Shown in pieces: positions 1 through 14,336 of a stretch of DNA of 14,465 bases. Under the pieces are notes generated by a model. That model saw only the letters and a list, made by a program, of their open reading frames with translations, was not told where the DNA came from and searched no databases. The stretch is from the NCBI GenBank assembly GCA_034437455.1, contig DAOTUB010000062.1, positions 1 through 14,465 of the forward strand, read 5' to 3'. The position numbers were made by a program, and so were the translations under genes. Position 1 is the stretch's first letter, and every line of letters begins with the position of its first letter. This DNA comes from Anaerolineae bacterium. GTDB taxonomy: Bacteria; Chloroflexota; Anaerolineae; B4-G1.

Positions 1-453
1 CATGTGTTATACCCGGCGTGGGCATACTTTGTGACGCTCTTGAGCAGCCCAAATGCCTACCATCGCGCTGCCGCCGTCCGTCTCATCGCAGACTTGACCC
101 GGATCGACGATGCGCAACAATTTGAGACGATCTTTGAACGCTACTTTGACTTGCTGGATGACGAGAAAGTGATGGTCGCCCGTTACCTCGCGCAGAACGC
201 CTGGAAGATCGCAGAGGCCAAGCCATATCTGCGAGAAAAGATCACAGCACGCTTGTTGGACATAGACGCCACCCATCATCCACCGAGCCGTAAAGCCCTG
301 GTCAAGGCCGACGCCATTGCGTCCTTTAAAGTGTTCTTTCAAGAATCCAAACGCAAAGAGGGCATACGCGCCTTTGTCGAAGCGCAATTGGAGAGTGAAA
401 GCCCCAAGGCCCGCCAGGCAGCCAGTGCCTTTTTGAGACGCTACGGGCAATAA
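1..453 (+). CDS. 3' end of a gene that starts upstream of the window; hypothetical protein C-terminal fragment (about 150 aa visible). Mostly helical-looking, no recognisable catalytic motif.
   Basis: Frame 1 is open from nt 1 to TAA at 451-453. The translation looks protein-like (balanced composition), whereas the overlapping minus-strand ORF 7-552 is Gly/Cys/Leu-rich junk. No start codon context is visible because the gene begins upstream. Confidence 0.5.
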   Translation, partial: HVLYPAWAYFVTLLSSPNAYHRAAAVRLIADLTRIDDAQQFETIFERYFDLLDDEKVMVARYLAQNAWKIAEAKPYLREKITARLLDIDATHHPPSRKALVKADAIASFKVFFQESKRKEGIRAFVEAQLESESPKARQAASAFLRRYGQ

Positions 454-690: not shown

Positions 691-3018
691 TTGAAAATGA
701 CCTTACACGAGATCTCTATTGAGCAATCACATAGCCATTACACTATCCGGCAAACGGTTTTAGCCTGCGTGGAGCAAGTTTTCCCTTTTGGGGCTTTTGT
801 TCGCTTGCCAGATGGCACCCAGGGCTATGTACGCAAGCGCGAGCTGACCCTGGCCGGCAACCAAGACCCCCGCGAGGTCGTCTCTCCCGGACAAGAAATC
901 AAAGCTGTGGTAGTCGCCTTGCCCCAGGCTGAACAAAGCCTCGAGTTGAGCGTGCGTCAGGCCGAACCCGATCCCTGGGAAACATTCGGACAGTCCCAAG
1001 TCCGTGACACTGTCACAGCCACGGTCAAAAAGCTCTACAACAGAGGCGCCCTCGTCCAAGTCACTCCCGGCGTAGACGGGTTCATCCCATTGGCCGAGTT
1101 GGCACCCTGGCCGGTGGAAAAGCCGGATGACTTGCTCTGGGTCGGTGACCGGGTAGAAGCGATGATTACTCATCTTGACCGGCAGGCCAGGCGGATGTGG
1201 CTCAGCATCCGGCAACAAGTAAAGCACACAGCACGCGTAAGAGAGGTGCTGTCGTTTCTCAGCAAAAAGGAAGATCCGGAAGAGACTTTACCCCAGGAGG
1301 AACCCGTCACCCTTGAGAAAGACCAAGGCATAGACCCAGCCATCGCCCAGCAAGTGGGACGCATTTTGGTAGTGGATGACCATGACAAAGTACGGGAACC
1401 GCTGGCGGCATGGCTGCATCGGATGGGCTTTGCGACGGAACAAGCTAAATCCCCCCACCAGGCGCTCGACTGCTGCCTTGAAAACGCTTACGGGCTGGCA
1501 TTGATTGACCTGAACCTTTCAGGCCAAGACGGACTGGAACTTGTTCAGGCCTTGAAAGACTTGAACCCGGATATCCCAATAGCCATCATGAGCACTCCCG
1601 AATGGATTGCCCAACGGTTGGAAGCGCTGTCCACACTGCGTCCGGTTCATATATTCGCCAAGCCACTAGACCTGGACGAGATCCGCGAGCTGTTGGTCCA
1701 ATTGGCTCGCGGTGAAATATTCCCTCCCACCGCTTTCACTAAGCCAGAGGTCCAAAAATCACCTGCGGCCTCCTCACACATGGCTAAAATGATGCGCAGC
1801 GACCTATCGTTAGCAAAACGTTTCCAAGCTGGCCTACAGGAACTAGTCCAGCAAGGCCAGGCAGATCAGGGCATCCTTTTTCAGCTCGCTCCCGACTCGC
1901 AGCAAATTTCTATCGTCGCGCAGGCCGGGAACATGGCATTAAACCAGGCGGCTATGTACAACCTGCGCCAAAGCCCGGTCAAAGACGTGATCTATGAGCA
2001 AGATGAGGTATTTGAGACAGACGTCTCGCGTCACGCTCAAGGTCAATTCAGCAAGCTATTAGCGCTGCTGCCCTTTGAATCCTGCCTGGGCGTCCCCATC
2101 CCGGCCGCCGGTCAGGTACAACATGCCCTGTTTCTGTTTCATCGTGAGCCAGAGATCTTTTCCCGCTATCGCTTGCGAGATGCACGCGCCATGGCCGTGC
2201 TGTTTAGCGCAGCGCTAGAAAGTCAAGCATTGGAAAAACGTATCCAGTCTGTCAGTCCATTTTTGCTGAGCGGGCAACTAGCGGCCGGCTTTGGCCACGA
2301 AGTATATAACAAGATGTCCGGGTTAGAGCTACAGATTTGCAACCTACAATCCGACTGCCAAACTGTGCAGCGAGATTTGACAGGGTGCCAACCGGTAGAC
2401 GACGGCGCCCTCGACGCACTGCTCAAAGCCACGGGCCGGTTGTTAGAATCCGCACTAGACCTCAAAGGCACCTTGCAACTTTTTCGCGAACTCGTTCAGG
2501 CTGAGCAGCAAGACCAAGTGGACGTGAACGCAGTGACACAACGCGCCATTCAACTGCTGCGTACCACCGCAGGCCAGCACCAGGTCATCATAGAAGAAAA
2601 ACTGGTTCCAGACTTGCCCCCGGTCAGAGGCAGTGCCGTCCGCCTGCAACAGGTTTTCGTCAACCTGATGCTAAACGCGATCCAACAAACCGCCCTAAAA
2701 ATGGTAAAATGGCCCGAAGGCCAGGGGGTACTGAGCATCGCGACGACTTGGGAGCCAGCGGCCGAGTGTCCCGTGCAAGTGCGGTTTATGGATAACGGGC
2801 CCGGGATACACCGCCACTTGTGGGACAAGATTTTTACCCTGGGCTTTTCGACCCGACAGGGCGGAACAGGCCTGGGTTTGTTCATCGCCAAGAGCCTGAT
2901 CGAGTCCTTGGGCGGCAAGGTCTGCGTAGAACAAAGCATGATCCCTGAGGGGAGCATTTTTCGGGTGGAACTGCCAGCGGCCAAGCATTGTCAACGAGGA
3001 GCGAGCAGCGATGCATGA
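691..3018 (+). CDS. Hybrid sensor histidine kinase with tandem N-terminal S1 RNA-binding domains: S1, S1, REC, GAF, HisKA, HATPase_c (775 aa). The ORF track starts at TTG 691; an in-frame ATG at 697 is an alternative start.
   Basis: Coordinates are aa (nt) throughout.
- S1 folds, two copies: residues about 15-92 (FGAFVRLPDGTQGYVRKRELT ... SLELSVRQ) and about 101-176 (GALVQVTPGVDGFIPLAELA ... MWLSIRQ).
- REC, aa 224-340 (nt 1360-1710): RILVVDDHD, LALIDLNLSG, IMST, FAKP.
- GAF, aa about 365-515 (nt 1783-2235).
- HisKA H-box: LAAGFGHEVYNKMSGL (His536, nt 2296-2298).
- HATPase: N box VFVNLMLNAIQQT, G1 DNGPGI, G2 GGTGLGLFIAKSL.
- A TATAAT hexamer lies at 658-663 upstream.
- No strong Shine-Dalgarno sequence before 691/697. 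Confidence 0.85.
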   Translation: MKMTLHEISIEQSHSHYTIRQTVLACVEQVFPFGAFVRLPDGTQGYVRKRELTLAGNQDPREVVSPGQEIKAVVVALPQAEQSLELSVRQAEPDPWETFGQSQVRDTVTATVKKLYNRGALVQVTPGVDGFIPLAELAPWPVEKPDDLLWVGDRVEAMITHLDRQARRMWLSIRQQVKHTARVREVLSFLSKKEDPEETLPQEEPVTLEKDQGIDPAIAQQVGRILVVDDHDKVREPLAAWLHRMGFATEQAKSPHQALDCCLENAYGLALIDLNLSGQDGLELVQALKDLNPDIPIAIMSTPEWIAQRLEALSTLRPVHIFAKPLDLDEIRELLVQLARGEIFPPTAFTKPEVQKSPAASSHMAKMMRSDLSLAKRFQAGLQELVQQGQADQGILFQLAPDSQQISIVAQAGNMALNQAAMYNLRQSPVKDVIYEQDEVFETDVSRHAQGQFSKLLALLPFESCLGVPIPAAGQVQHALFLFHREPEIFSRYRLRDARAMAVLFSAALESQALEKRIQSVSPFLLSGQLAAGFGHEVYNKMSGLELQICNLQSDCQTVQRDLTGCQPVDDGALDALLKATGRLLESALDLKGTLQLFRELVQAEQQDQVDVNAVTQRAIQLLRTTAGQHQVIIEEKLVPDLPPVRGSAVRLQQVFVNLMLNAIQQTALKMVKWPEGQGVLSIATTWEPAAECPVQVRFMDNGPGIHRHLWDKIFTLGFSTRQGGTGLGLFIAKSLIESLGGKVCVEQSMIPEGSIFRVELPAAKHCQRGASSDA
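733..1218 (+). other. Tandem S1 (OB-fold) RNA-binding domain region of the 691-3018 kinase.
   Basis: Two roughly 75-aa repeats matching the S1 pattern G-x-V-x-G-x-V ... GAFV ... G-x-V-(H/R) ... S-E-L ... G-x-x-(I/V)-x-(V/A)-x-V-(L/I) ... (L/I)-S-(V/I)-R-Q. Seen in translation only; no HMM was run. Confidence 0.7.
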
Positions 3019-6000
3019 AGAACCGCTAAGGGTAGTACTGATAGACGACGAGCAAAGCCTGCGCGAGCCGTTAGCCAAGCGCCTACGAGACAAGTACAAC
3101 TATCACGTCGATGCTGCCGCCGATGCCCGTCAAGCCTGGCAGTTGATTACCGAGGCCAGTTCACCTTACGATGTGGCTCTAATCGACGATATGTTGACAC
3201 CTCAGGCCCAAGTTGAACCCCAACTGATTGGCATCGACCTTACACGCCGGATCAGAGAAGACCATCCCGAGACAGAATGCATCCTCTTCACCGGGTGGGG
3301 TATGGAGCGGGCGCTAGAGGGACTACGCGCCGGCGCGTACCGCTACCTGTCCAAGCCGATCAACATGGAAGAACTAGGCATGACCATCCGTATGGCAGCG
3401 GAGCATCGCCGGCTCAAACAGCAACTGGAAACCACCCGCCAGGAGAAAAAATGGCTACAGACGTTCCTGGAAATCGGTCGGGCAACGACTTCTGTCCTGG
3501 AATTGGATGAGGTTTTGGAACATGTCCATGCACAAATCAGTCTCCTTATGGATGCTTCTTGTATGGACGTCGTCCTATATGACAGTGCCAATCAAACGCT
3601 CAAGTTCGAGTTGGGCTATGACAAAGGGGTCAAGGAGACGAGATGGGAGCGCCCATTCACCGCAGACCATGGATTGACCGATTTGGTGATTCAACATCGT
3701 CACCCGCTGCTGATCAGAGATTATAAAAAAGAAACCCCTCCCGTTCTCGCCTATCAGCGTGGCGAAATGAGCCGTTCGTGGCTGGGCGTCCCCCTGATCG
3801 CGCGCGACCAGGTCATCGGGGCCATCACGGTGCAAAGCTATACACCGCACAAATTCGACGAGACGGATCAGCAAATCCTGGATACGGTGGCCAACCACAT
3901 AGCCAGCGCCATCCAAAACGCTCAATTATTCTCTGAACTGGTCAAGACCCAAAAGTGGCGCGAAGCGCTCATCAACAACACCCTAGATGCGGTGATCGCT
4001 ATTGACCAGGGCAAACGAGTGACGGTCTTTAACCAGCGCGCTGAACAGATGTTTGGCTGGCATGCGCGAGAAATCATAGGGCAGCCGGTCACCCAATTAC
4101 ATATGAGTACGGGAAAGGCCAAAGAGATCTTTGACACGGTAAACCATGAAGGAGAGATCTCGAGTCTGGAAGTAGAACTAAGACATCGGGACGGTACCGC
4201 TATCCCGGCGCGGCTTTCAGCAACGCGGATCAAAGACAGCAACGGTCATCCCATCGGGCAAGCGCGGTTTATGCGTGATTTACGCCAGGTCAACCTGTTG
4301 GAAGAACGGCTGCGGGCTTTGATCCGAGGAAATCGGGTCATTAACAGCAGTCTGGAATTAGAGCAAGTACTCAACCAGGTCATCCAAGCTGCACTAGAAG
4401 CTTTCCCGATGGCACAAGGGGGTGTTATTCACCTGTATGATAAACACAGCAGTGTATTGCGCCTCCAAGCAAATACTTTCAGTTACAGCCCTTCAGCCAT
4501 CGAGGCGTTGCACATGAAGCCCGGTGAAGGCATTGCCGGTTGGGTCTATATGCGCGGACAGCCCGTGGTGATCCCAGATGCACACCAGGATGAGCGTTAC
4601 AAGCTGATCGCCCATCCGGAAATCGCTCCCCACAAACCTATGGTGTGCGTACCCCTCAAAGTGAGAGATCAAGTACTTGGAACACTATCGCTCAACACAG
4701 TAGAGACCGGCAACACCTTTCAAGCCGAGGACCTGGGATTACTTTCCACATTTGCCGATCAGGCGGCTGTCGCCATCAACAACGCCCGCTTTTTTAGGGA
4801 ACAGGACCGCCGCCAGCAACTCTTGACCAGGCTGAACGAAGCGTCACGGCACATCCGTGCGGAAAAACCAATCCCCAAGCTCTTGCACGAAATCGTTCGC
4901 CAGGCGGTCCGGTTGGTCGACTGTTCGGCAGGCGCGCTGTTCCTCAACCGCCCCCACGTCAAGGAACTAGAATTACAAGTGACCTATGAACTACCCACCG
5001 AATTGGTTGGCAGTCATCTATCGCACACCGAAGGCTTGGTCGGTTTAGTTGCACGAACTGGCAAGTCCAAATTCATACGCAATTACTCAACATGGTCAAG
5101 ACCCACAGTGCTCTTTGAACCCTATAACTTTGAAAGCGTCGCTGGAATCCCTCTCAAACAAGCCGGCGAGGTACAAGCGGTCTTGCTCGTCGCTGACCAG
5201 ACCGGCACTCCGGCGCATCTGCAGCCGTCCGACCTGGAGATACTGGAGCGCCTGGCGGCACAGGCCGCTATCGAACTCGAGACCTCTCTATTGATGAGCC
5301 GAGAACAACGCGTGGCCAGTCAATTAGGTATCCTGCACCAAATCAGCGATTACATACAAGCAGCCAGAGACCTGGACAAAGTGTTGCACGTCGTCCTGAC
5401 GGGCGTGACGGCGGGTTATGGTCTGGGCTTTAATCGTGCGGCGCTGTTGCTGCTAGATGAGCGCCAGGAACACCTGGTGGGACGCATGGGCATCGGCCAA
5501 CTGGAGGAACCAGCAGCGCAACAAGACTGGGAGCAACACCACAAGCACAAATTAGAGGATTTTCAAAGATACCTCGAACTGTTGGAAAAGGACGCCCTGC
5601 CGTTGACGCCGGTGGGAGAGAAAATCCGCGACATCAGGCTGCCCCTCACGCCTCACGTCTGTGGCATCCTCATGCGGGTGATGCGCCAGCAACAGCACCT
5701 ACTCCTGACTCTAGAGGAATTAAACGAACTACCAGGCAGCTTTGTCAAGGTTTTCGACCCGGCACAGCCAATCATCGTTGCGCCCCTGCTGGCGCGCGGA
5801 GCGGTCATCGGACTGCTCATCGCCGATAACAAGTTCACTGCGTCGCCCATCACGCCGGAGGACACAGAGGCACTGCTGACCTTTGCCAACACGGCCGCGA
5901 TCGCCATCAGCAACGCACAACTTTACCACGAAACTCGGGTCGCACGAGAGCGGTTGCGCAGCTTTTACGAGGCCAGCAACGCCCTGGTCTCGTCCCAGGA

Positions 6001-9000
6001 TCCCGAACAAGTGCTCCGAAAAATCGTCGAACAAGCTCACCAGACGGCCAGCTCGGCCTGGACCGGCCTGATCTTGATCGACAAGGCTGGACAGGCACAA
6101 AAACTGGTCACGATGGGAATAGACGAGTACGGCGGATTTACCGTTCGGCCCGACGGGATCTCGATGCAGGCTATGTGCAGCGACCAAGCCCAAATCATCG
6201 AGGATGTCCGGGCAGAACGCGACCGCGTCAACCCAGGTTTGCTGCGCGACGGCATTGGCGCCGCTTTGTGTTTGCCCCTCTCCCTGCAAGAAAACCACTT
6301 TGGTGTGATGTGGCTGCACTATGCCATGCCGCGCCATTTCCCCATCAGTGAGGTTGAAGCCTTGCAGCTCTACGTCAATCAGGCGGCCATCGCTTACGAT
6401 GCTGCCCGACGTATGCAGCAGCTAGAAAACATGCGACGAGCGGCCGAGGCACTGGCTGGCGCTTCTAGCATAGCGGCAGTGCTCAAGCAAATAGCCGAAA
6501 GCGCCAGGATTGTCCTGAATGCCGACTCGTCCGTCGTCTGGCCGTACGATCACGAGAGACGCACCTTTTTGCCCGCCGAGCTAGAGACGGCCGGCATTTC
6601 ACCCGAGCTAGTCGAACAATTTCGAGATGTCGAACCTCAACCAGAAGGTACAACGGAAACAGTTTTGCATTTAGGGTGGATTGGCGTCTCGGACGTCGAC
6701 CAGGAGGTGCACCCCTTCCTGGGTCCCCCTGACAGAGGCTTGCGTGGGGCGATCACCGTCCAATCCTTCCAAGGGATCGCTTTACGGGCGGGCGACGAAA
6801 TTCTGGGCGTGCTGTACGCAGACTATGAAAGGCCGCGTAGCTTTAATAAAGCGGACCGCCGGCTGGCTGAAACCTTTGCCACTCACGCTTCCCTGGCCCT
6901 CAAGAAAGCCAGACTGCTGGACCAAATCAGCCAAGTGAGAGACACAGCCAAAGCCGTGGCCGAAGTCAGCATCCTGGAGAAACTAGCAAGTACGCTAGAC
7001 TCGATTACGCGGGGGACTTGCAAAACGCTCAACTGCGATGCCGTCACCCTCTACACTTTTGATCAGCGCAAAGACCAAATCGGGTTTCCCCCAACGGTGA
7101 TAGGGATACGAGACACGAAACAAGTCCTCGAGTTAGGCTTTGTGGCAAGGAACTCGGTTGTCGGCAAAATACTAGACTTGGGTCAAGTGCATGTGGCCGA
7201 AGACGCTCCTTCCGATCCCATCATGGGCGGGGTGTTTGTCAAACGTGAGGGTATCAAATCATCGCTCGGCGTCCCACTCCAGGTCGGCGACCAAAAAGTA
7301 GGGGTGATGTTTGTGAACTATCGCACCCCGCACCGTTTTACCGGTGAAGAACTGACCAACATCAAGCTCTTTGCGACCCAGGCTGCCATCGCCATCCGCA
7401 ACGCTCGGCTCATAGACGATATTTTCCACCGCAACATTCAGCTCCAGACCGTCACCGAGGTCTCCAAGTCAACCAGCACCCTTCTCGCCCCCGAAGCATT
7501 GATGCACCAGGCAGTCAACCTGATTCGAGAGCGCTTTGAACTCTACTATGTGGGTCTATTTTTAACCGATGAAAGCAGCAAGCATGCAGTATTGCGAGCC
7601 GGCACCGGTGACGCGGGTCAAAGAATGCTCACAGATGGCTACAAGCTAGAGATCGATGATCACTCGATGATTGGATGGAGCATCAACAACGCCCAACCAC
7701 GTATCGCGCTCGACATCGACAAAGAAAAAATCCGCTTCAACAACCCTCACCTGCCCGAGACTCACTCCGAGCTGGCGCTGCCGCTGATCAGCCGTGGTCG
7801 CTGCATCGGTGCCCTGACGGTGCAAAGCACCAGGCCAGATGCCTTTTCCTCTGAAGACGTCGCCGTGCTGCAAACGATGGCCGATCAATTGGCCATCGCC
7901 ATCGAGAACGCTCAGCTATATCGAGAAGAAACAGAACAGCTCCAGGAATCCCAGGCCCTGCAAAAAATAGCGATCTCTCTCGCCGGTAGCCTTGAGCTTG
8001 GTGAAGTGTTGAACCACGTGATGCAGGCAGCGATGGGCTTTACCGAAACAGATTCTGGCACCATCTTGTTGTGGAACGCAGAACAAGAAAATTTCACCTA
8101 CACACTCACCACAACGGGGCCAGAACGAACCCTACAGGTATATACCAGCCAAACCCGCGAGGAAGGCATAGCCCGGTCAATCATTGAGGAGCAAAAGACG
8201 GTCATCATTTCCAACGCCCAGGATGACCCCCGGATCAATCCCATTGCGATTGAAAAAGGCCGACGAGCGCTCATCGGCACTCCACTGGTGAGCCGCGAAG
8301 AAGTAATCGGCGTACTCTATGTAAGCAGCTTGGAACCCCGCCAGTTCCTTGCACAACAAGTGAGCTTGTTAAAAAGCCTGGCTAGCCAGGCTGCAGTGGC
8401 CATTGAAAGAGCGCGACAACACAAAGAGTTAAAAGAAACCAAAAGCGTCATCGGTGCCAGGACAGCACTGGCATGGATGGGGATGACCAGTAGCGCCTGG
8501 CGTCACACCATCGAAAAGCATTCCCTGACCATACGGGAGCAAGCACAACTCCTGCGCCAAGACTGGGAAAAAGTGATGCCGCATTCTCAAAAGCTCAAAG
8601 CCCAGGACCGCATCGCGATGATTGAGCGATTGACGACGCAAATCCTGCAAAAACCGATCACACCACCCCTTTCCAGCGAATCCGGTGTTCAGTTGGTATC
8701 GCTGACCACGCTGGTCAGCGAGCGTGCTAGACAATTATGGCAAAATGACCCCTACAAAAAGACCAAGCTCCAACTGGACTTGCAACTACCGGAGGAAGCG
8801 GCGGTCCGCACTAGCCCTGAATGGTTGCGACGGGCTTTTGATATCTTGGTGGACAATGCGGTGAATGCCGTTACAGACTGTCCTGTGCGCGAGATTACTA
8901 TCGGCACCAAAGCTTACAGCTCGGGAGTCAAGGTTTTCGTGTCGGACACTGGACCGGGCATCCCAGACGAGATGCAAGACAAAATCGGCCTTGAGGCGAT

Positions 9001-9172
9001 AGAGAAACCCAAAGATGCCAAAGGGCTCGGTATGGGGCTACTAATGGCCCACGTTATTGTACAAACTTATGGGGGGAAAATTTGGCTTGATTGCACCGGA
9101 CCCGAGGGCACGACCATGTCCATCTGGCTCCCCTTGGAAGCCCGACCCTCAGAGGGAGAGCAGACCTCATGA
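3011..9172 (+). CDS. Giant multi-sensor hybrid histidine kinase (2053 aa): N-terminal REC, GAF1, PAS, GAF2 through GAF9, divergent HisKA, HATPase_c. ATG 3011 overlaps the upstream stop (TGA 3016-3018) by 8 nt; SD GAGGAG at 2996-3001.
   Basis: - REC: VVLIDDEQ, VALIDDML, ILFTGW, LSKP.
- PAS: TLDAVIAIDQGKRVTVFNQRAEQMFGWHAREIIGQP at about nt 3950-4290.
- Nine GAF-like units, each closing with the helix motif (F/L)A-x-QAA(I/V)AI-x-NA(R/Q)L(Y/F/I). The nine closing motifs are:
  1. ANHIASAIQNAQLF
  2. ADQAAVAINNARFF
  3. AAQAAIELETSLL
  4. ANTAAIAISNAQLY
  5. NQAAIAYDAARR
  6. ATHASLALKKARLL
  7. ATQAAIAIRNARLI
  8. ADQLAIAIENAQLY
  9. ASQAAVAIERARQ
- Divergent H-box: LAWMGMTSSAWRHTIEKH, which aligns to LAxxGxxAxxxAHEIxNPL.
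- HATPase: N box FDILVDNAVNAV, G1 DTGPGI, G2 KGLGMGLLMAH. Confidence 0.9.
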   Translation: MHEEPLRVVLIDDEQSLREPLAKRLRDKYNYHVDAAADARQAWQLITEASSPYDVALIDDMLTPQAQVEPQLIGIDLTRRIREDHPETECILFTGWGMERALEGLRAGAYRYLSKPINMEELGMTIRMAAEHRRLKQQLETTRQEKKWLQTFLEIGRATTSVLELDEVLEHVHAQISLLMDASCMDVVLYDSANQTLKFELGYDKGVKETRWERPFTADHGLTDLVIQHRHPLLIRDYKKETPPVLAYQRGEMSRSWLGVPLIARDQVIGAITVQSYTPHKFDETDQQILDTVANHIASAIQNAQLFSELVKTQKWREALINNTLDAVIAIDQGKRVTVFNQRAEQMFGWHAREIIGQPVTQLHMSTGKAKEIFDTVNHEGEISSLEVELRHRDGTAIPARLSATRIKDSNGHPIGQARFMRDLRQVNLLEERLRALIRGNRVINSSLELEQVLNQVIQAALEAFPMAQGGVIHLYDKHSSVLRLQANTFSYSPSAIEALHMKPGEGIAGWVYMRGQPVVIPDAHQDERYKLIAHPEIAPHKPMVCVPLKVRDQVLGTLSLNTVETGNTFQAEDLGLLSTFADQAAVAINNARFFREQDRRQQLLTRLNEASRHIRAEKPIPKLLHEIVRQAVRLVDCSAGALFLNRPHVKELELQVTYELPTELVGSHLSHTEGLVGLVARTGKSKFIRNYSTWSRPTVLFEPYNFESVAGIPLKQAGEVQAVLLVADQTGTPAHLQPSDLEILERLAAQAAIELETSLLMSREQRVASQLGILHQISDYIQAARDLDKVLHVVLTGVTAGYGLGFNRAALLLLDERQEHLVGRMGIGQLEEPAAQQDWEQHHKHKLEDFQRYLELLEKDALPLTPVGEKIRDIRLPLTPHVCGILMRVMRQQQHLLLTLEELNELPGSFVKVFDPAQPIIVAPLLARGAVIGLLIADNKFTASPITPEDTEALLTFANTAAIAISNAQLYHETRVARERLRSFYEASNALVSSQDPEQVLRKIVEQAHQTASSAWTGLILIDKAGQAQKLVTMGIDEYGGFTVRPDGISMQAMCSDQAQIIEDVRAERDRVNPGLLRDGIGAALCLPLSLQENHFGVMWLHYAMPRHFPISEVEALQLYVNQAAIAYDAARRMQQLENMRRAAEALAGASSIAAVLKQIAESARIVLNADSSVVWPYDHERRTFLPAELETAGISPELVEQFRDVEPQPEGTTETVLHLGWIGVSDVDQEVHPFLGPPDRGLRGAITVQSFQGIALRAGDEILGVLYADYERPRSFNKADRRLAETFATHASLALKKARLLDQISQVRDTAKAVAEVSILEKLASTLDSITRGTCKTLNCDAVTLYTFDQRKDQIGFPPTVIGIRDTKQVLELGFVARNSVVGKILDLGQVHVAEDAPSDPIMGGVFVKREGIKSSLGVPLQVGDQKVGVMFVNYRTPHRFTGEELTNIKLFATQAAIAIRNARLIDDIFHRNIQLQTVTEVSKSTSTLLAPEALMHQAVNLIRERFELYYVGLFLTDESSKHAVLRAGTGDAGQRMLTDGYKLEIDDHSMIGWSINNAQPRIALDIDKEKIRFNNPHLPETHSELALPLISRGRCIGALTVQSTRPDAFSSEDVAVLQTMADQLAIAIENAQLYREETEQLQESQALQKIAISLAGSLELGEVLNHVMQAAMGFTETDSGTILLWNAEQENFTYTLTTTGPERTLQVYTSQTREEGIARSIIEEQKTVIISNAQDDPRINPIAIEKGRRALIGTPLVSREEVIGVLYVSSLEPRQFLAQQVSLLKSLASQAAVAIERARQHKELKETKSVIGARTALAWMGMTSSAWRHTIEKHSLTIREQAQLLRQDWEKVMPHSQKLKAQDRIAMIERLTTQILQKPITPPLSSESGVQLVSLTTLVSERARQLWQNDPYKKTKLQLDLQLPEEAAVRTSPEWLRRAFDILVDNAVNAVTDCPVREITIGTKAYSSGVKVFVSDTGPGIPDEMQDKIGLEAIEKPKDAKGLGMGLLMAHVIVQTYGGKIWLDCTGPEGTTMSIWLPLEARPSEGEQTS

Positions 9173-13139: not shown

Positions 13140-14336
13140 ATGCAAGAGACACCTTTCATACATACGGCCTACCGTCAAGAGACTCTAGTCGAGTCCGGCT
13201 TGTTCAATCACCTAGGAGTAGCCCACGAGCAGTTGCCCGGCTATCACGCCTTGTTTGCTGCTCGGGTCCTGGTGACGCCCTATGAAATCTTGGCCGAAAG
13301 AAAGTGGGGCATGGTAGAAAGAGATCTGCTAGACGAGGTTCTGGACAGACAGAGGCGCTTTATCGCCAGCCTACACTACATAGATCCTCATTCCACCAGC
13401 CCTGACCCTAGCCTCAAGACGGCAGCGCTGCGCTATGTCGCTCGACCGGAGACGCGGCAAATAGACACGATACTGGTGGGCAAAGTCTTTGCCCACCAGA
13501 TCGACCAGGCTCGTGATATGGCTCTCGCCTGGTACAAGGAAATCGAAGCACTGTTTTCCCGTGACTACAAGCTGCAACCGCTCAAGTCAGAAGAGGAATT
13601 CATAACCCAATCGGGGCAACAACTGCTCAAAAGCATCTCTGAGCCCACACAGACAGAAGTCAGACGCTACGAGATGTTCTTGCCCAGGTCGACCGAACGA
13701 GAAGTAAGGGAAACCCACTATGTCGTGTATCCTTTTATGTGGCATCGAAACGGCATGGATCAAGTATGGCAAGTTATGGCGTCAATGTCAGCACCTGTCA
13801 TACTCAGCGTTATGCTGCGTCCGGCTTATTTGTACGAAGCGGAAGAGCTGCATTTGGCGCGATTTTACGAGGCCACAAAAAATCTCAAGTCCGAACGCGT
13901 CGCCGACCACGTGCTAGGGGAACAAGCCGCGCAGATATACGCCGGATACCTCCGGACCTGGCGCCAACCTTTCCTGGTGCGCGCGCAGGTCACCGCACCG
14001 CAAGGGACCCACCGCGCGCTGGCACGCGCGGTGGGATGTGCACTGTCATACGGCGCGCCGGCCAGTGGCGATGACAGACATAGCCCGTTCCCTGGTTACG
14101 AGTTGATCACACCCACCAAAGAGGACCGCAAGACCGCACGCGACAATGTATGCTGGCTCGAGATGCAAGACTGGGGGACTGACCAAGCTGCACCAGCCTA
14201 TCGTAGGTTTCGATACCTGACCGACTTGAAAGGCGCCCATTGCTTGTTTCGTCTCCCGTTCGTGCCCAAGGCCGGCTTGCCTGGCGCACAATTTGACAAA
14301 TCGTCAACGCCGGACGCAGACTCGAACAATCGATAG
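13140..14336 (+). CDS. Hypothetical protein, 398 aa, no recognisable domain; apparently soluble. Starts 28 nt after the SPFH-like gene's stop with SD GAGG 6 nt upstream, so it is probably co-transcribed.
   Basis: Long ORF with protein-like composition, tightly linked on the same strand. I see no catalytic or structural motif I can name, and no hydrophobic transmembrane segment. Confidence 0.55.
   Translation: MQETPFIHTAYRQETLVESGLFNHLGVAHEQLPGYHALFAARVLVTPYEILAERKWGMVERDLLDEVLDRQRRFIASLHYIDPHSTSPDPSLKTAALRYVARPETRQIDTILVGKVFAHQIDQARDMALAWYKEIEALFSRDYKLQPLKSEEEFITQSGQQLLKSISEPTQTEVRRYEMFLPRSTEREVRETHYVVYPFMWHRNGMDQVWQVMASMSAPVILSVMLRPAYLYEAEELHLARFYEATKNLKSERVADHVLGEQAAQIYAGYLRTWRQPFLVRAQVTAPQGTHRALARAVGCALSYGAPASGDDRHSPFPGYELITPTKEDRKTARDNVCWLEMQDWGTDQAAPAYRRFRYLTDLKGAHCLFRLPFVPKAGLPGAQFDKSSTPDADSNNR

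Follow-up and report, generated by a model that had tools for sequence, protein, structure and literature searches.

Introduction

Multiple PAS or GAF domains set on a coiled-coil spine are a familiar design among cytoplasmic sensor kinases, and the principle that the linkers between such domains keep a fixed phase is already established for PAS and LOV kinases. In this study we analysed a 14,465-nt stretch of an Anaerolineae bacterium of the Chloroflexota (assembly GCA_034437455.1, contig DAOTUB010000062.1), here called the window, and in particular one gene in it that encodes a putative histidine kinase of 2053 amino acids (aa). In this protein a receiver (REC) domain, one PAS domain and nine GAF domains precede a helical region resembling a dimerization and histidine phosphotransfer (DHp) domain and a catalytic (CA) domain of the HATPase_c family.

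Several described systems resemble this nine-GAF kinase in part. In sensor kinases, PAS/GAF domains have been reported to form tandem arrays of regular spacing, joined by coiled-coil linkers of heptad-periodic length (PMC6798134), and coiled coils between GAF domains were described earlier (PMC1592074). The multi-GAF cyanobacteriochromes and phytochromes and the YF1/FixL-type kinases (PMC6798134; 4gcz) share with it the regular spacing, the coiled-coil linkers and the heptad periodicity, and also the continuity of the last sensor helix with the first DHp helix. However, the nine-GAF kinase has neither the bilin-binding Cys nor the PHY tongue and comes from a Chloroflexota lineage, and its H-box is WRH where those systems have H-E-x-x-N/T. 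In the GAF tandems of PDE2A, PDE5, PDE6 and CyaB2 (3ibj, 3lfv, 8ugb, 1ykd) the last and first helices of adjacent GAFs also form a joining helix, and the C-terminal helix motif is alike in PDE5 ('...NAQLYE') and in the kinase ('...NAQLY'). These tandems differ in having two units rather than nine and a phosphodiesterase or cyclase output rather than a histidine kinase, their identity to the kinase is 14-16%, and cyclic-nucleotide binding is not indicated for the kinase. An activation mechanism has been described for a REC-controlled kinase, LvrB of Leptospira (PMC13269768), and a 'REC-HisK' architecture, REC-(PAS/GAF)n-HisKA-HATPase, is known from archaea (PMC5847659). Both resemble the nine-GAF kinase in being cytoplasmic and in having, ahead of helical linkers and a DHp-CA module, an N-terminal receiver whose phospho-acceptor pocket is intact, and in both the implied role is that of an intermediate in a multi-kinase cascade. 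In LvrB, however, REC acts via a single helix, whereas in the nine-GAF kinase REC is separated from DHp by ten sensor domains. The DHp of the nine-GAF kinase is not of the HisKA type. Finally, poly-HAMP arrays (PMC13446029) also set serial copies of one modulatory domain on a coiled-coil backbone from input to output, but there the HAMP four-helix bundle is itself part of the backbone while GAFs hang off it, and those receptors are membrane proteins.

Our analysis suggests, with a probability that we put at roughly 75%, that the gene encodes a soluble REC-controlled sensor histidine kinase in which PAS and nine GAFs are serially coupled by a phase-locked spine to a divergent phospho-acceptor. 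A literature search for multi-GAF Chloroflexota kinases returned general reviews only and no paper on this family.

Results

Domain layout of the kinase

Pfam searches with the whole protein place Response_reg at residues 8-124, PAS at 318-423 and HATPase_c at 1936-2043, together with nine GAF_2 stretches (E 4.8e-132) and nine GAF stretches. The order is REC, GAF1, PAS, GAF2 to GAF9, DHp-like helical region and HATPase_c (Table 1), and every part of the protein is assigned to some domain or unit. This confirms the architecture proposed in a preliminary description of the stretch, namely an N-terminal REC, a PAS between GAF1 and GAF2, eight further GAFs and a kinase. The PAS domain scores 41.9 bits against a cut-off of 22.6 with PF00989 and 58.4 against 22.9 with TIGR00229, and REC retains D12/D13, the putative phospho-acceptor D59, T94 and K115. 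No transmembrane segment was found in the protein, which is therefore considered cytoplasmic. In public collections it is entered as P0250 under the label 'PAS domain S-box-containing protein'.

When each unit was scanned alone against the curated gathering score, all nine passed PF01590 (cut-off 22.4 bits) with 32.9-68.4 bits, the weakest being GAF4 at 32.9, and eight of nine passed PF13185, with GAF4 marginally under the threshold (25.5 vs 28.6 bits). The count of nine GAF units given in the preliminary description is thereby borne out, and the nine helix strings, the insertion string and the SSAWRHTIEKH stretch that it quoted all lie at the positions it gave. Its unit period of about 150 aa needs correction to 162-169 aa, with two longer intervals, 288 aa where the PAS domain intervenes and 211 aa at GAF4. 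The insertion that it described in GAF4 does exist and is present in 19 homologues, although its size was put too high at about 60 aa, the excess of GAF4 over the other units being about 45 aa. The 'QAAIAIxNAxL' helix does terminate the units as described, but its standing as a special conserved feature was overstated. The Pfam GAF models reach their final position within this helix in the unit scans, and the family profile 'QAAvAIeNArqYe' aligns with '...VLHNAQLYE' of human PDE5 GAF-A and with '...GIQNTQMYE' of PDE5 GAF-B; on this comparison we regard it as the ordinary C-terminal helix generic to GAF domains and not as one peculiar to the 2053-aa kinase. The consensus end of 1726 family GAF units reads 'FAnQAAiAIeNARLy'.

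Linker lengths step by seven

As the linker length we took the distance between the conserved Asn in the last helix of one GAF and a set point in the first helix of the GAF that follows, at 1349 junctions in 250 family proteins. The distances are 13 residues at 334 junctions, 20 at 889, 27 at 58, 34 at 8 and 48 at 6, which together account for 1295 of the 1349 junctions (96%), and the small off-phase classes are shifted mostly by 3 or 4 residues. After related junctions had been collapsed by single linkage at 40% identity, a conservative check because most junctions then fall in one cluster, 43 of 62 cluster-by-length classes were in phase against a chance expectation of about 14%. The same step governs the approach to the kinase core, where the last GAF and the His stand 25, 32, 39, 46 or 53 residues apart in 205 of 208 proteins. 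The 2053-aa kinase itself has junction values of 20, 20, 20, 13, 13, 20 and 20 and a distance of 32 from the last GAF to the His. Heptad steps of this kind are the mark of a coiled coil that has to hold its register over the whole length between the first GAF and the phospho-acceptor, so that the spine acts like a phase-locked coiled coil.

Predicted structures

AlphaFold2 (AF2) models were made of monomers and covered units 3, 4, 5 and 9. The GAF3-5 model, with a predicted local distance difference test (pLDDT) score of 85.5 and a predicted template-modelling score (pTM) of 0.72, shows three GAF folds; a single 44-residue helix bridges GAF4 and GAF5, and two helices, separated by a break of 2 residues, bridge GAF3 and GAF4. 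The helices of the GAF4 insertion lie at model residues 238-250, 256-264 and 272-277 with pLDDT of about 80-87. The best matches of this model in the Protein Data Bank (PDB), found with Foldseek, are the GAF-A/B tandems of PDE5A, PDE6 and PDE2A, CyaB2 and phytochrome GAF-PHY modules, although the PDE matches are at fold level with 14-16% identity. In the model from GAF9 to the C-terminus (pLDDT 77.9) the final GAF9 helix is part of one 75-residue helix (model residues 144-218) that extends through H1832; beyond it the chain turns, forms a second helix and enters the catalytic domain. Its best matches in the PDB by the same search are the LOV kinases YF1/SB2F1, ZraS and HK853. The layout is that of class I kinases, with the invariant His on the first helix of a hairpin directly before CA (hairpin pLDDT 49-68).

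Kinase core and the WRH box

The catalytic domain is standard, with ZraS and HK853 as PDB matches and with N (DNAVNA), G1 (DTGPGI) and G2 (GLGMGL) boxes whose N, D and G residues are invariant in 26 homologues. The H-box had been called divergent, and it is indeed so, since HisKA goes undetected even at E<=10 on the isolated region. The family consensus of this box is G-A-R-T-A-L-A-W-M-G-M-x-S-S-x-W-R-H-x-I, in which W1822, W1830 and H1832 are invariant, and among 249 family proteins 187 have WRH and 22 have WGH. Proteins of the WGH subtype (P0018, P0016, P0022, P0056, P0074 and others) read ...T-A-V-D-W-x-x-M-V-S-T-A-W-G-H-x-I-x-R-E-V-G-T, and their second helix is conserved differently from that of WRH proteins. 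In sequence alignments H1832 stands opposite the phospho-accepting DHp His of FixL/YF1 and AtoS, and we predict it to be the phospho-acceptor.

A search with the DHp region alone against 1.84 billion cluster representatives returned 482 proteins at E<=0.001, and the 150 of these that were listed are mostly long multi-GAF proteins. At least one GAF is fused to the WRH module in all but 9 of 129 newly found representatives, and the homologues that carry a taxon name are all from metagenome-assembled genomes (MAGs) of Chloroflexota. As judged from its sequence relatives, the region is best described as a narrow, lineage-specific and Pfam-invisible variant of the DHp domain.

The array is old and is kept by selection

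The nine units share 15-28% identity at the protein level and 34-45% at the DNA level, and exact direct repeats in the gene reach 14 nt at most, which is also the maximum in codon-shuffled controls (mean 12.2). With up to 3 mismatches allowed, the motif GCCATCGCCATC-N3-AACGC is found at five places where chance would give 0.05, and a 38-nt family at unit ends recurs with 63-76% identity. All five copies of the motif are in frame and code for A-x-A-I-x-N-A in the preferred codons of the gene, which uses GCC for 40% of Ala, ATC for 68% of Ile and AAC for 76% of Asn. The DNA echo pointed out in the preliminary description is thus a true recurrence, but it is a by-product of peptide conservation and codon bias rather than a mark of repeat DNA. 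Since the DNA identity is low and the repeats are of chance length, there is no substrate for homologous recombination and no ground for collapse, so that neither the proneness to recombination nor the concern about assembly collapse or expansion raised in that description can be upheld. Unit exchange by microhomology through the motif was also considered and set aside, the identical stretches of 12-14 nt being no longer than expected by chance.

Two independent assemblies agree with this gene. A Logan contig (L001) encodes a protein of 96% identity without any insertion or deletion (indel) in the array and with a length difference in the last three residues only. The ratio of nonsynonymous to synonymous substitution rates (dN/dS) against this protein is 0.03-0.21 across all domains, and all nine units are therefore kept by selection. 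On a JGI contig (L002) the encoded protein has 2047 aa, 57% identity and an identical nine-unit layout, and units 1-7 and 9 find their best matches among its units at 39-71% identity (GAF7 39%, the other seven 51-71%). We conclude that the nine GAFs are anciently diverged units and that the array is neither a recent tandem DNA repeat nor an assembly artefact. GAF8 has 28% identity to unit 8 of L002 and finds its best matches elsewhere in the arrays of other homologues. From this low identity the GAF8 slot has apparently been exchanged between the 2053-aa kinase and its 57% orthologue.

A protein search yielded 640 relatives, those with names being MAGs of Anaerolineae, Caldilineae and "Candidatus Leptofilum", and nearly all of them combine REC, GAFs and HATPase_c without HisKA. 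Among the best 120 homologues scanned with a family HMM the number of GAFs per protein ranges from 4 to 16, with nine in 24. GAF3-4-5-6-7 form a collinear block inside arrays of 8 to 15 GAFs while the end units are variable, and GAF4 is the best-conserved unit, with 60-71% identity to its counterparts in these arrays. The number of GAFs in this slot changes among relatives by gain or loss of whole units or blocks. The proposal of a 'domain-shuffling sensor array' therefore holds on an evolutionary timescale, as the GAF counts, the conserved GAF3-7 block and the swap at GAF8 indicate, but not otherwise.

Ligand signatures in the GAF units

A conserved bilin-binding Cys or a PHY domain would point to a phytochrome-like GAF. 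The units have no Cys in common, a Cys-His dipeptide is absent and the 12 Cys of the protein are scattered, nor does the protein match a PHY or phytochrome family in Pfam. The NKFDE signature of cyclic-nucleotide-binding GAFs of the PDE/CyaB type is N-K-xn-F-x3-D-E. GAF4, which has weak sequence similarity to PDE GAFs, carries a conserved D-N-K-F-T-x-x-P-I-T-x-E-D whose spacing and order are unlike NKFDE, and the other eight units are without it. No known ligand-binding signature common to all nine units was seen.

Gene neighbourhood

The kinase gene belongs to a cassette with the order S1 kinase, multi-GAF kinase, at least one REC protein and a REC-X-wHTH regulator, where wHTH is a winged helix-turn-helix domain. 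This cassette is present in five contigs, namely the window, L001, L002, the contig of P0003 and L004, and the GAF counts in the last four are 9, 9, 13 and 9, the last without PAS. One or two additional genes lie between kinase and regulator in the P0003 contig and in L004. At 13503..14339 of L004 a REC fused to CyanoTRADDas_TM stands between the single REC and the REC-wHTH regulator.

The upstream kinase has two N-terminal S1 RNA-binding domains and a HisKA-like DHp with the H-box AAGFGHEVYNK. More than 100 full-length homologues of about 760 aa at >=45% identity occur in Chloroflexota MAGs, labelled only 'S1 RNA-binding domain-containing protein', and an S1 kinase lies directly upstream of the multi-GAF kinase in the four other contigs as well, that is, in every contig examined. 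No paper was found in a literature search for histidine kinases with S1 domains. The acidic pair of a receiver normally binds Mg2+. In the 129-aa receiver downstream of the kinase the N-terminal acidic pair is replaced (LLVGNPSG), while the Asp, Thr and Lys positions are kept by eye (D52, T80, K101); a longer TTG-started open reading frame (ORF) from 9091 probably does not mark its real start. The 655-aa regulator is the last cassette gene in all five contigs. Its middle part has TCAD9 as sole match, at 37.1 bits against a cut-off of 40, and has no solved or curated relative. PADLOC gave no defence-system match on six window proteins, and we therefore do not take the weak TCAD9 match as a sign of a conflict system.

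An Rfam search and a promoter and terminator scan of the window gave nothing above chance. Downstream lie a gene for an SPFH/Band 7 protein and one for a 398-aa protein without family match. The start of the SPFH gene is present in L001 and neither gene was found in L002, and because of the latter both are probably outside the signalling cassette. At the left edge of the window a partial ORF has weak HEAT-repeat matches under the Pfam cut-offs.

Table 1. Positions of genes and domains in the window; residue numbers of domains are those of the 2053-aa kinase.
Feature	Position	Strand	Details
Partial ORF, left window edge	4..453	+	
S1-S1-REC-GAF-HATPase_c kinase, 773 aa	697..3018	+	directly upstream; 8-nt overlap with the ATG of the nine-GAF gene
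Nine-GAF kinase gene	3011..9172	+	ATG start, 2053 aa, without internal stop
REC domain	3032..3382	+	aa 8-124; PF00072 62.5 bits vs cut-off 30.2
GAF1	3428..3931	+	aa 140-307; GAF_2 66.4 bits; 69% identity to unit 1 of orthologue P0004
PAS domain	3962..4282	+	aa 318-424; PF00989 E 1.2e-10; TIGR00229 58.4 bits
GAF2	4316..4795	+	aa 436-595; GAF_2 86.4 bits
GAF3	4796..5293	+	aa 596-761; GAF 54.1 bits; GAF fold in AF2 model
GAF4	5294..5926	+	aa 762-972; GAF 32.9 bits; bears helical insertion
GAF4 insertion, ~45 aa	5504..5641	+	aa 832-877; three short helices predicted between beta2 and beta3
GAF5	5927..6412	+	aa 973-1134; GAF_2 53.9 bits; AF2 model
GAF6	6413..6919	+	aa 1135-1303; GAF_2 45.7 bits
GAF7	6920..7414	+	aa 1304-1468; GAF 57.8 bits
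GAF8, variable slot	7415..7921	+	aa 1469-1637; GAF_2 60.6 bits; 28% identity at P0004 position
GAF9	7922..8419	+	aa 1638-1803; GAF_2 66.6 bits; last helix predicted to continue into DHp helix
DHp-like helical hairpin	8420..8800	+	aa 1804-1930; unseen by all Pfam histidine-kinase dimerization models
'WRH' H-box ALAWMGMTSSAWRHTIEKH	8468..8524	+	W1822, W1830, H1832 invariant in family
HATPase_c	8816..9139	+	aa 1936-2043; PF02518 64.4 bits vs cut-off 26.4
Single-domain receiver, 129 aa	9169..9558	+	ATGA overlap with kinase stop; conserved in L001 and L002
Response regulator, 655 aa	9561..11528	+	REC, ~400-aa middle, OmpR-type winged helix
SPFH/Band 7 protein, 439 aa	11792..13111	+	
398-aa protein	13140..14336	+	

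Discussion

Prediction and comparison indicate that the PAS and the nine GAFs hang beside one another on a helical spine, the last helix of each GAF continuing into the first helix of the next and, after GAF9, into the first DHp helix bearing the invariant H1832. We propose that the nine-GAF kinase would work as an elongated parallel dimer some tens of nanometres long, by our own estimate about 50 nm at roughly 6 nm for each 44-residue junction helix. Phosphorylation of D59 in REC and changes of ligand or state in the PAS and GAF units would alter the packing or twist of this spine, and the change would set the rate at which the intact HATPase_c autophosphorylates H1832 with ATP. The phosphoryl group would then pass to the receivers of the neighbours, the 129-aa REC protein and the 655-aa REC-wHTH regulator, if the flow runs in this direction, and each GAF may either sense or just relay.

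Several points weigh against this proposal. The linker counts are not independent events, the proteins being kin. The dimeric state and the parallel orientation are inferred from homologues, and the DHp hairpin of the monomer model has low confidence (pLDDT 49-68), which is usual for a dimerization element modelled as a monomer. HisKA (PF00512), HisKA_2, HisKA_3, HWE_HK and His_kinase gave no match with the whole protein or, at E<=10, with the isolated region. In a HisKA-type H-box an acidic residue comes right after the phospho-accepting His (H-E/D) and a T/N four residues on, whereas the box of the kinase, W-R-H-T-I-E-K-H, is without an acid after the His and none is conserved in the family. 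Comparison by hhalign pairs H1832 with the His of the upstream kinase, yet with a probability of only 1.1%, which is insignificant, so that DHp homology is argued from the predicted topology and from where the His lies and not from sequence. No ligand is assignable to any of the nine GAFs. Because its acidic pair is missing, the 129-aa receiver may be a pseudo-receiver and possibly no phospho-acceptor.

Other explanations were weighed against the same evidence. The DNA motif found 5 times against 0.05 expected and the 38-nt family of 63-76% identity at unit ends could suggest that the array arose by recent tandem amplification, that it is a hot-spot of recombination, or that separate genes were fused or wrongly collapsed in the assembly. 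We find all of this scarcely credible, however, since the units have diverged to 15-28% protein and 34-45% DNA identity, the longest exact repeat of 14 nt is matched in codon-shuffled controls, the copies of the motif keep the reading frame and follow from peptide conservation and codon bias, two independent assemblies share the architecture with no array indel against the 96% relative, and purifying selection acts on every unit. A photoreceptor that binds bilin, like the multi-GAF cyanobacteriochromes or phytochromes, or a cyclic-nucleotide receptor like the PDE/CyaB2 tandems, is brought to mind by the closest solved tandems (the PDE5/6/2 and CyaB2 GAF pairs and phytochrome GAF-PHY), by the conserved D-N-K-F...E-D of GAF4, which recalls NKFDE, and by the weak sequence similarity of GAF4 to PDE GAFs. 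But the units have no conserved Cys or Cys-His dipeptide, the protein has no PHY or phytochrome family match, the PDE matches stay at fold level with 14-16% identity and the NKFDE-like stretch is partial and confined to one unit, so that such a receptor is very improbable.

Doubts about the output concern the possibility that the C-terminal module is a pseudokinase, a phosphatase-only module or a kinase for another residue or protein, in keeping with the failure to detect a HisKA-type family, the conserved His without adjoining acidic residue and the insignificant profile-profile match to a HisKA-like DHp. Against this, the His and the N, G1 and G2 ATP-binding boxes are invariant, class-I histidine kinases share the predicted topology and supply the best structural matches, and receivers lie directly downstream in every cassette examined, and we therefore hold a function other than autokinase to be improbable. 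More serious is the idea that most GAFs are ligand-free and that the array is chiefly a rigid spacer or scaffold which sets the distance between REC/PAS and kinase or docks partners. The same output module is joined to 0 to 16 GAFs, the strict heptad phasing fits a rigid rod, the units share no known ligand-binding signature and the GAF8 slot is exchangeable, all of which would suit a spacer. However, each position is conserved with its own orthologue rather than with neighbouring units, dN/dS is low throughout and the helical insertion of GAF4 between beta2 and beta3 is conserved, as is expected if individual units have individual jobs. We consider a mere spacer unlikely on balance, although this idea overlaps the explanation by a serially coupled sensor array and does not exclude it.

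In returning to the coupled sensor kinase that we favour, we note that the 2053-aa protein is an ordinary, automatically annotated member of an uncharacterised family, with nine GAFs in the middle of the range of 4-16. We speculate, with the odds somewhat against us, that the 'WRH box' defines an undescribed phospho-acceptor class of a few hundred clusters and that the GAF rod may serve as an evolvable, modular integration bus, in which single units or blocks would be gained, lost or swapped at the conserved junction helix while the register up to the His is kept. Databases label the members of this family only as 'GAF domain-containing' or 'PAS domain S-box' proteins, and censuses of Chloroflexota two-component systems that rely on HisKA models would probably undercount WRH-type kinases. 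The points that may concern specialists are the quantisation of the linkers, the WRH-box DHp and the S1-kinase partner. The roughly 1350 junctions make a natural data set on the passage and integration of signals along a very long helical spine, and the constant pairing with an S1-domain kinase marks an unstudied signalling module.

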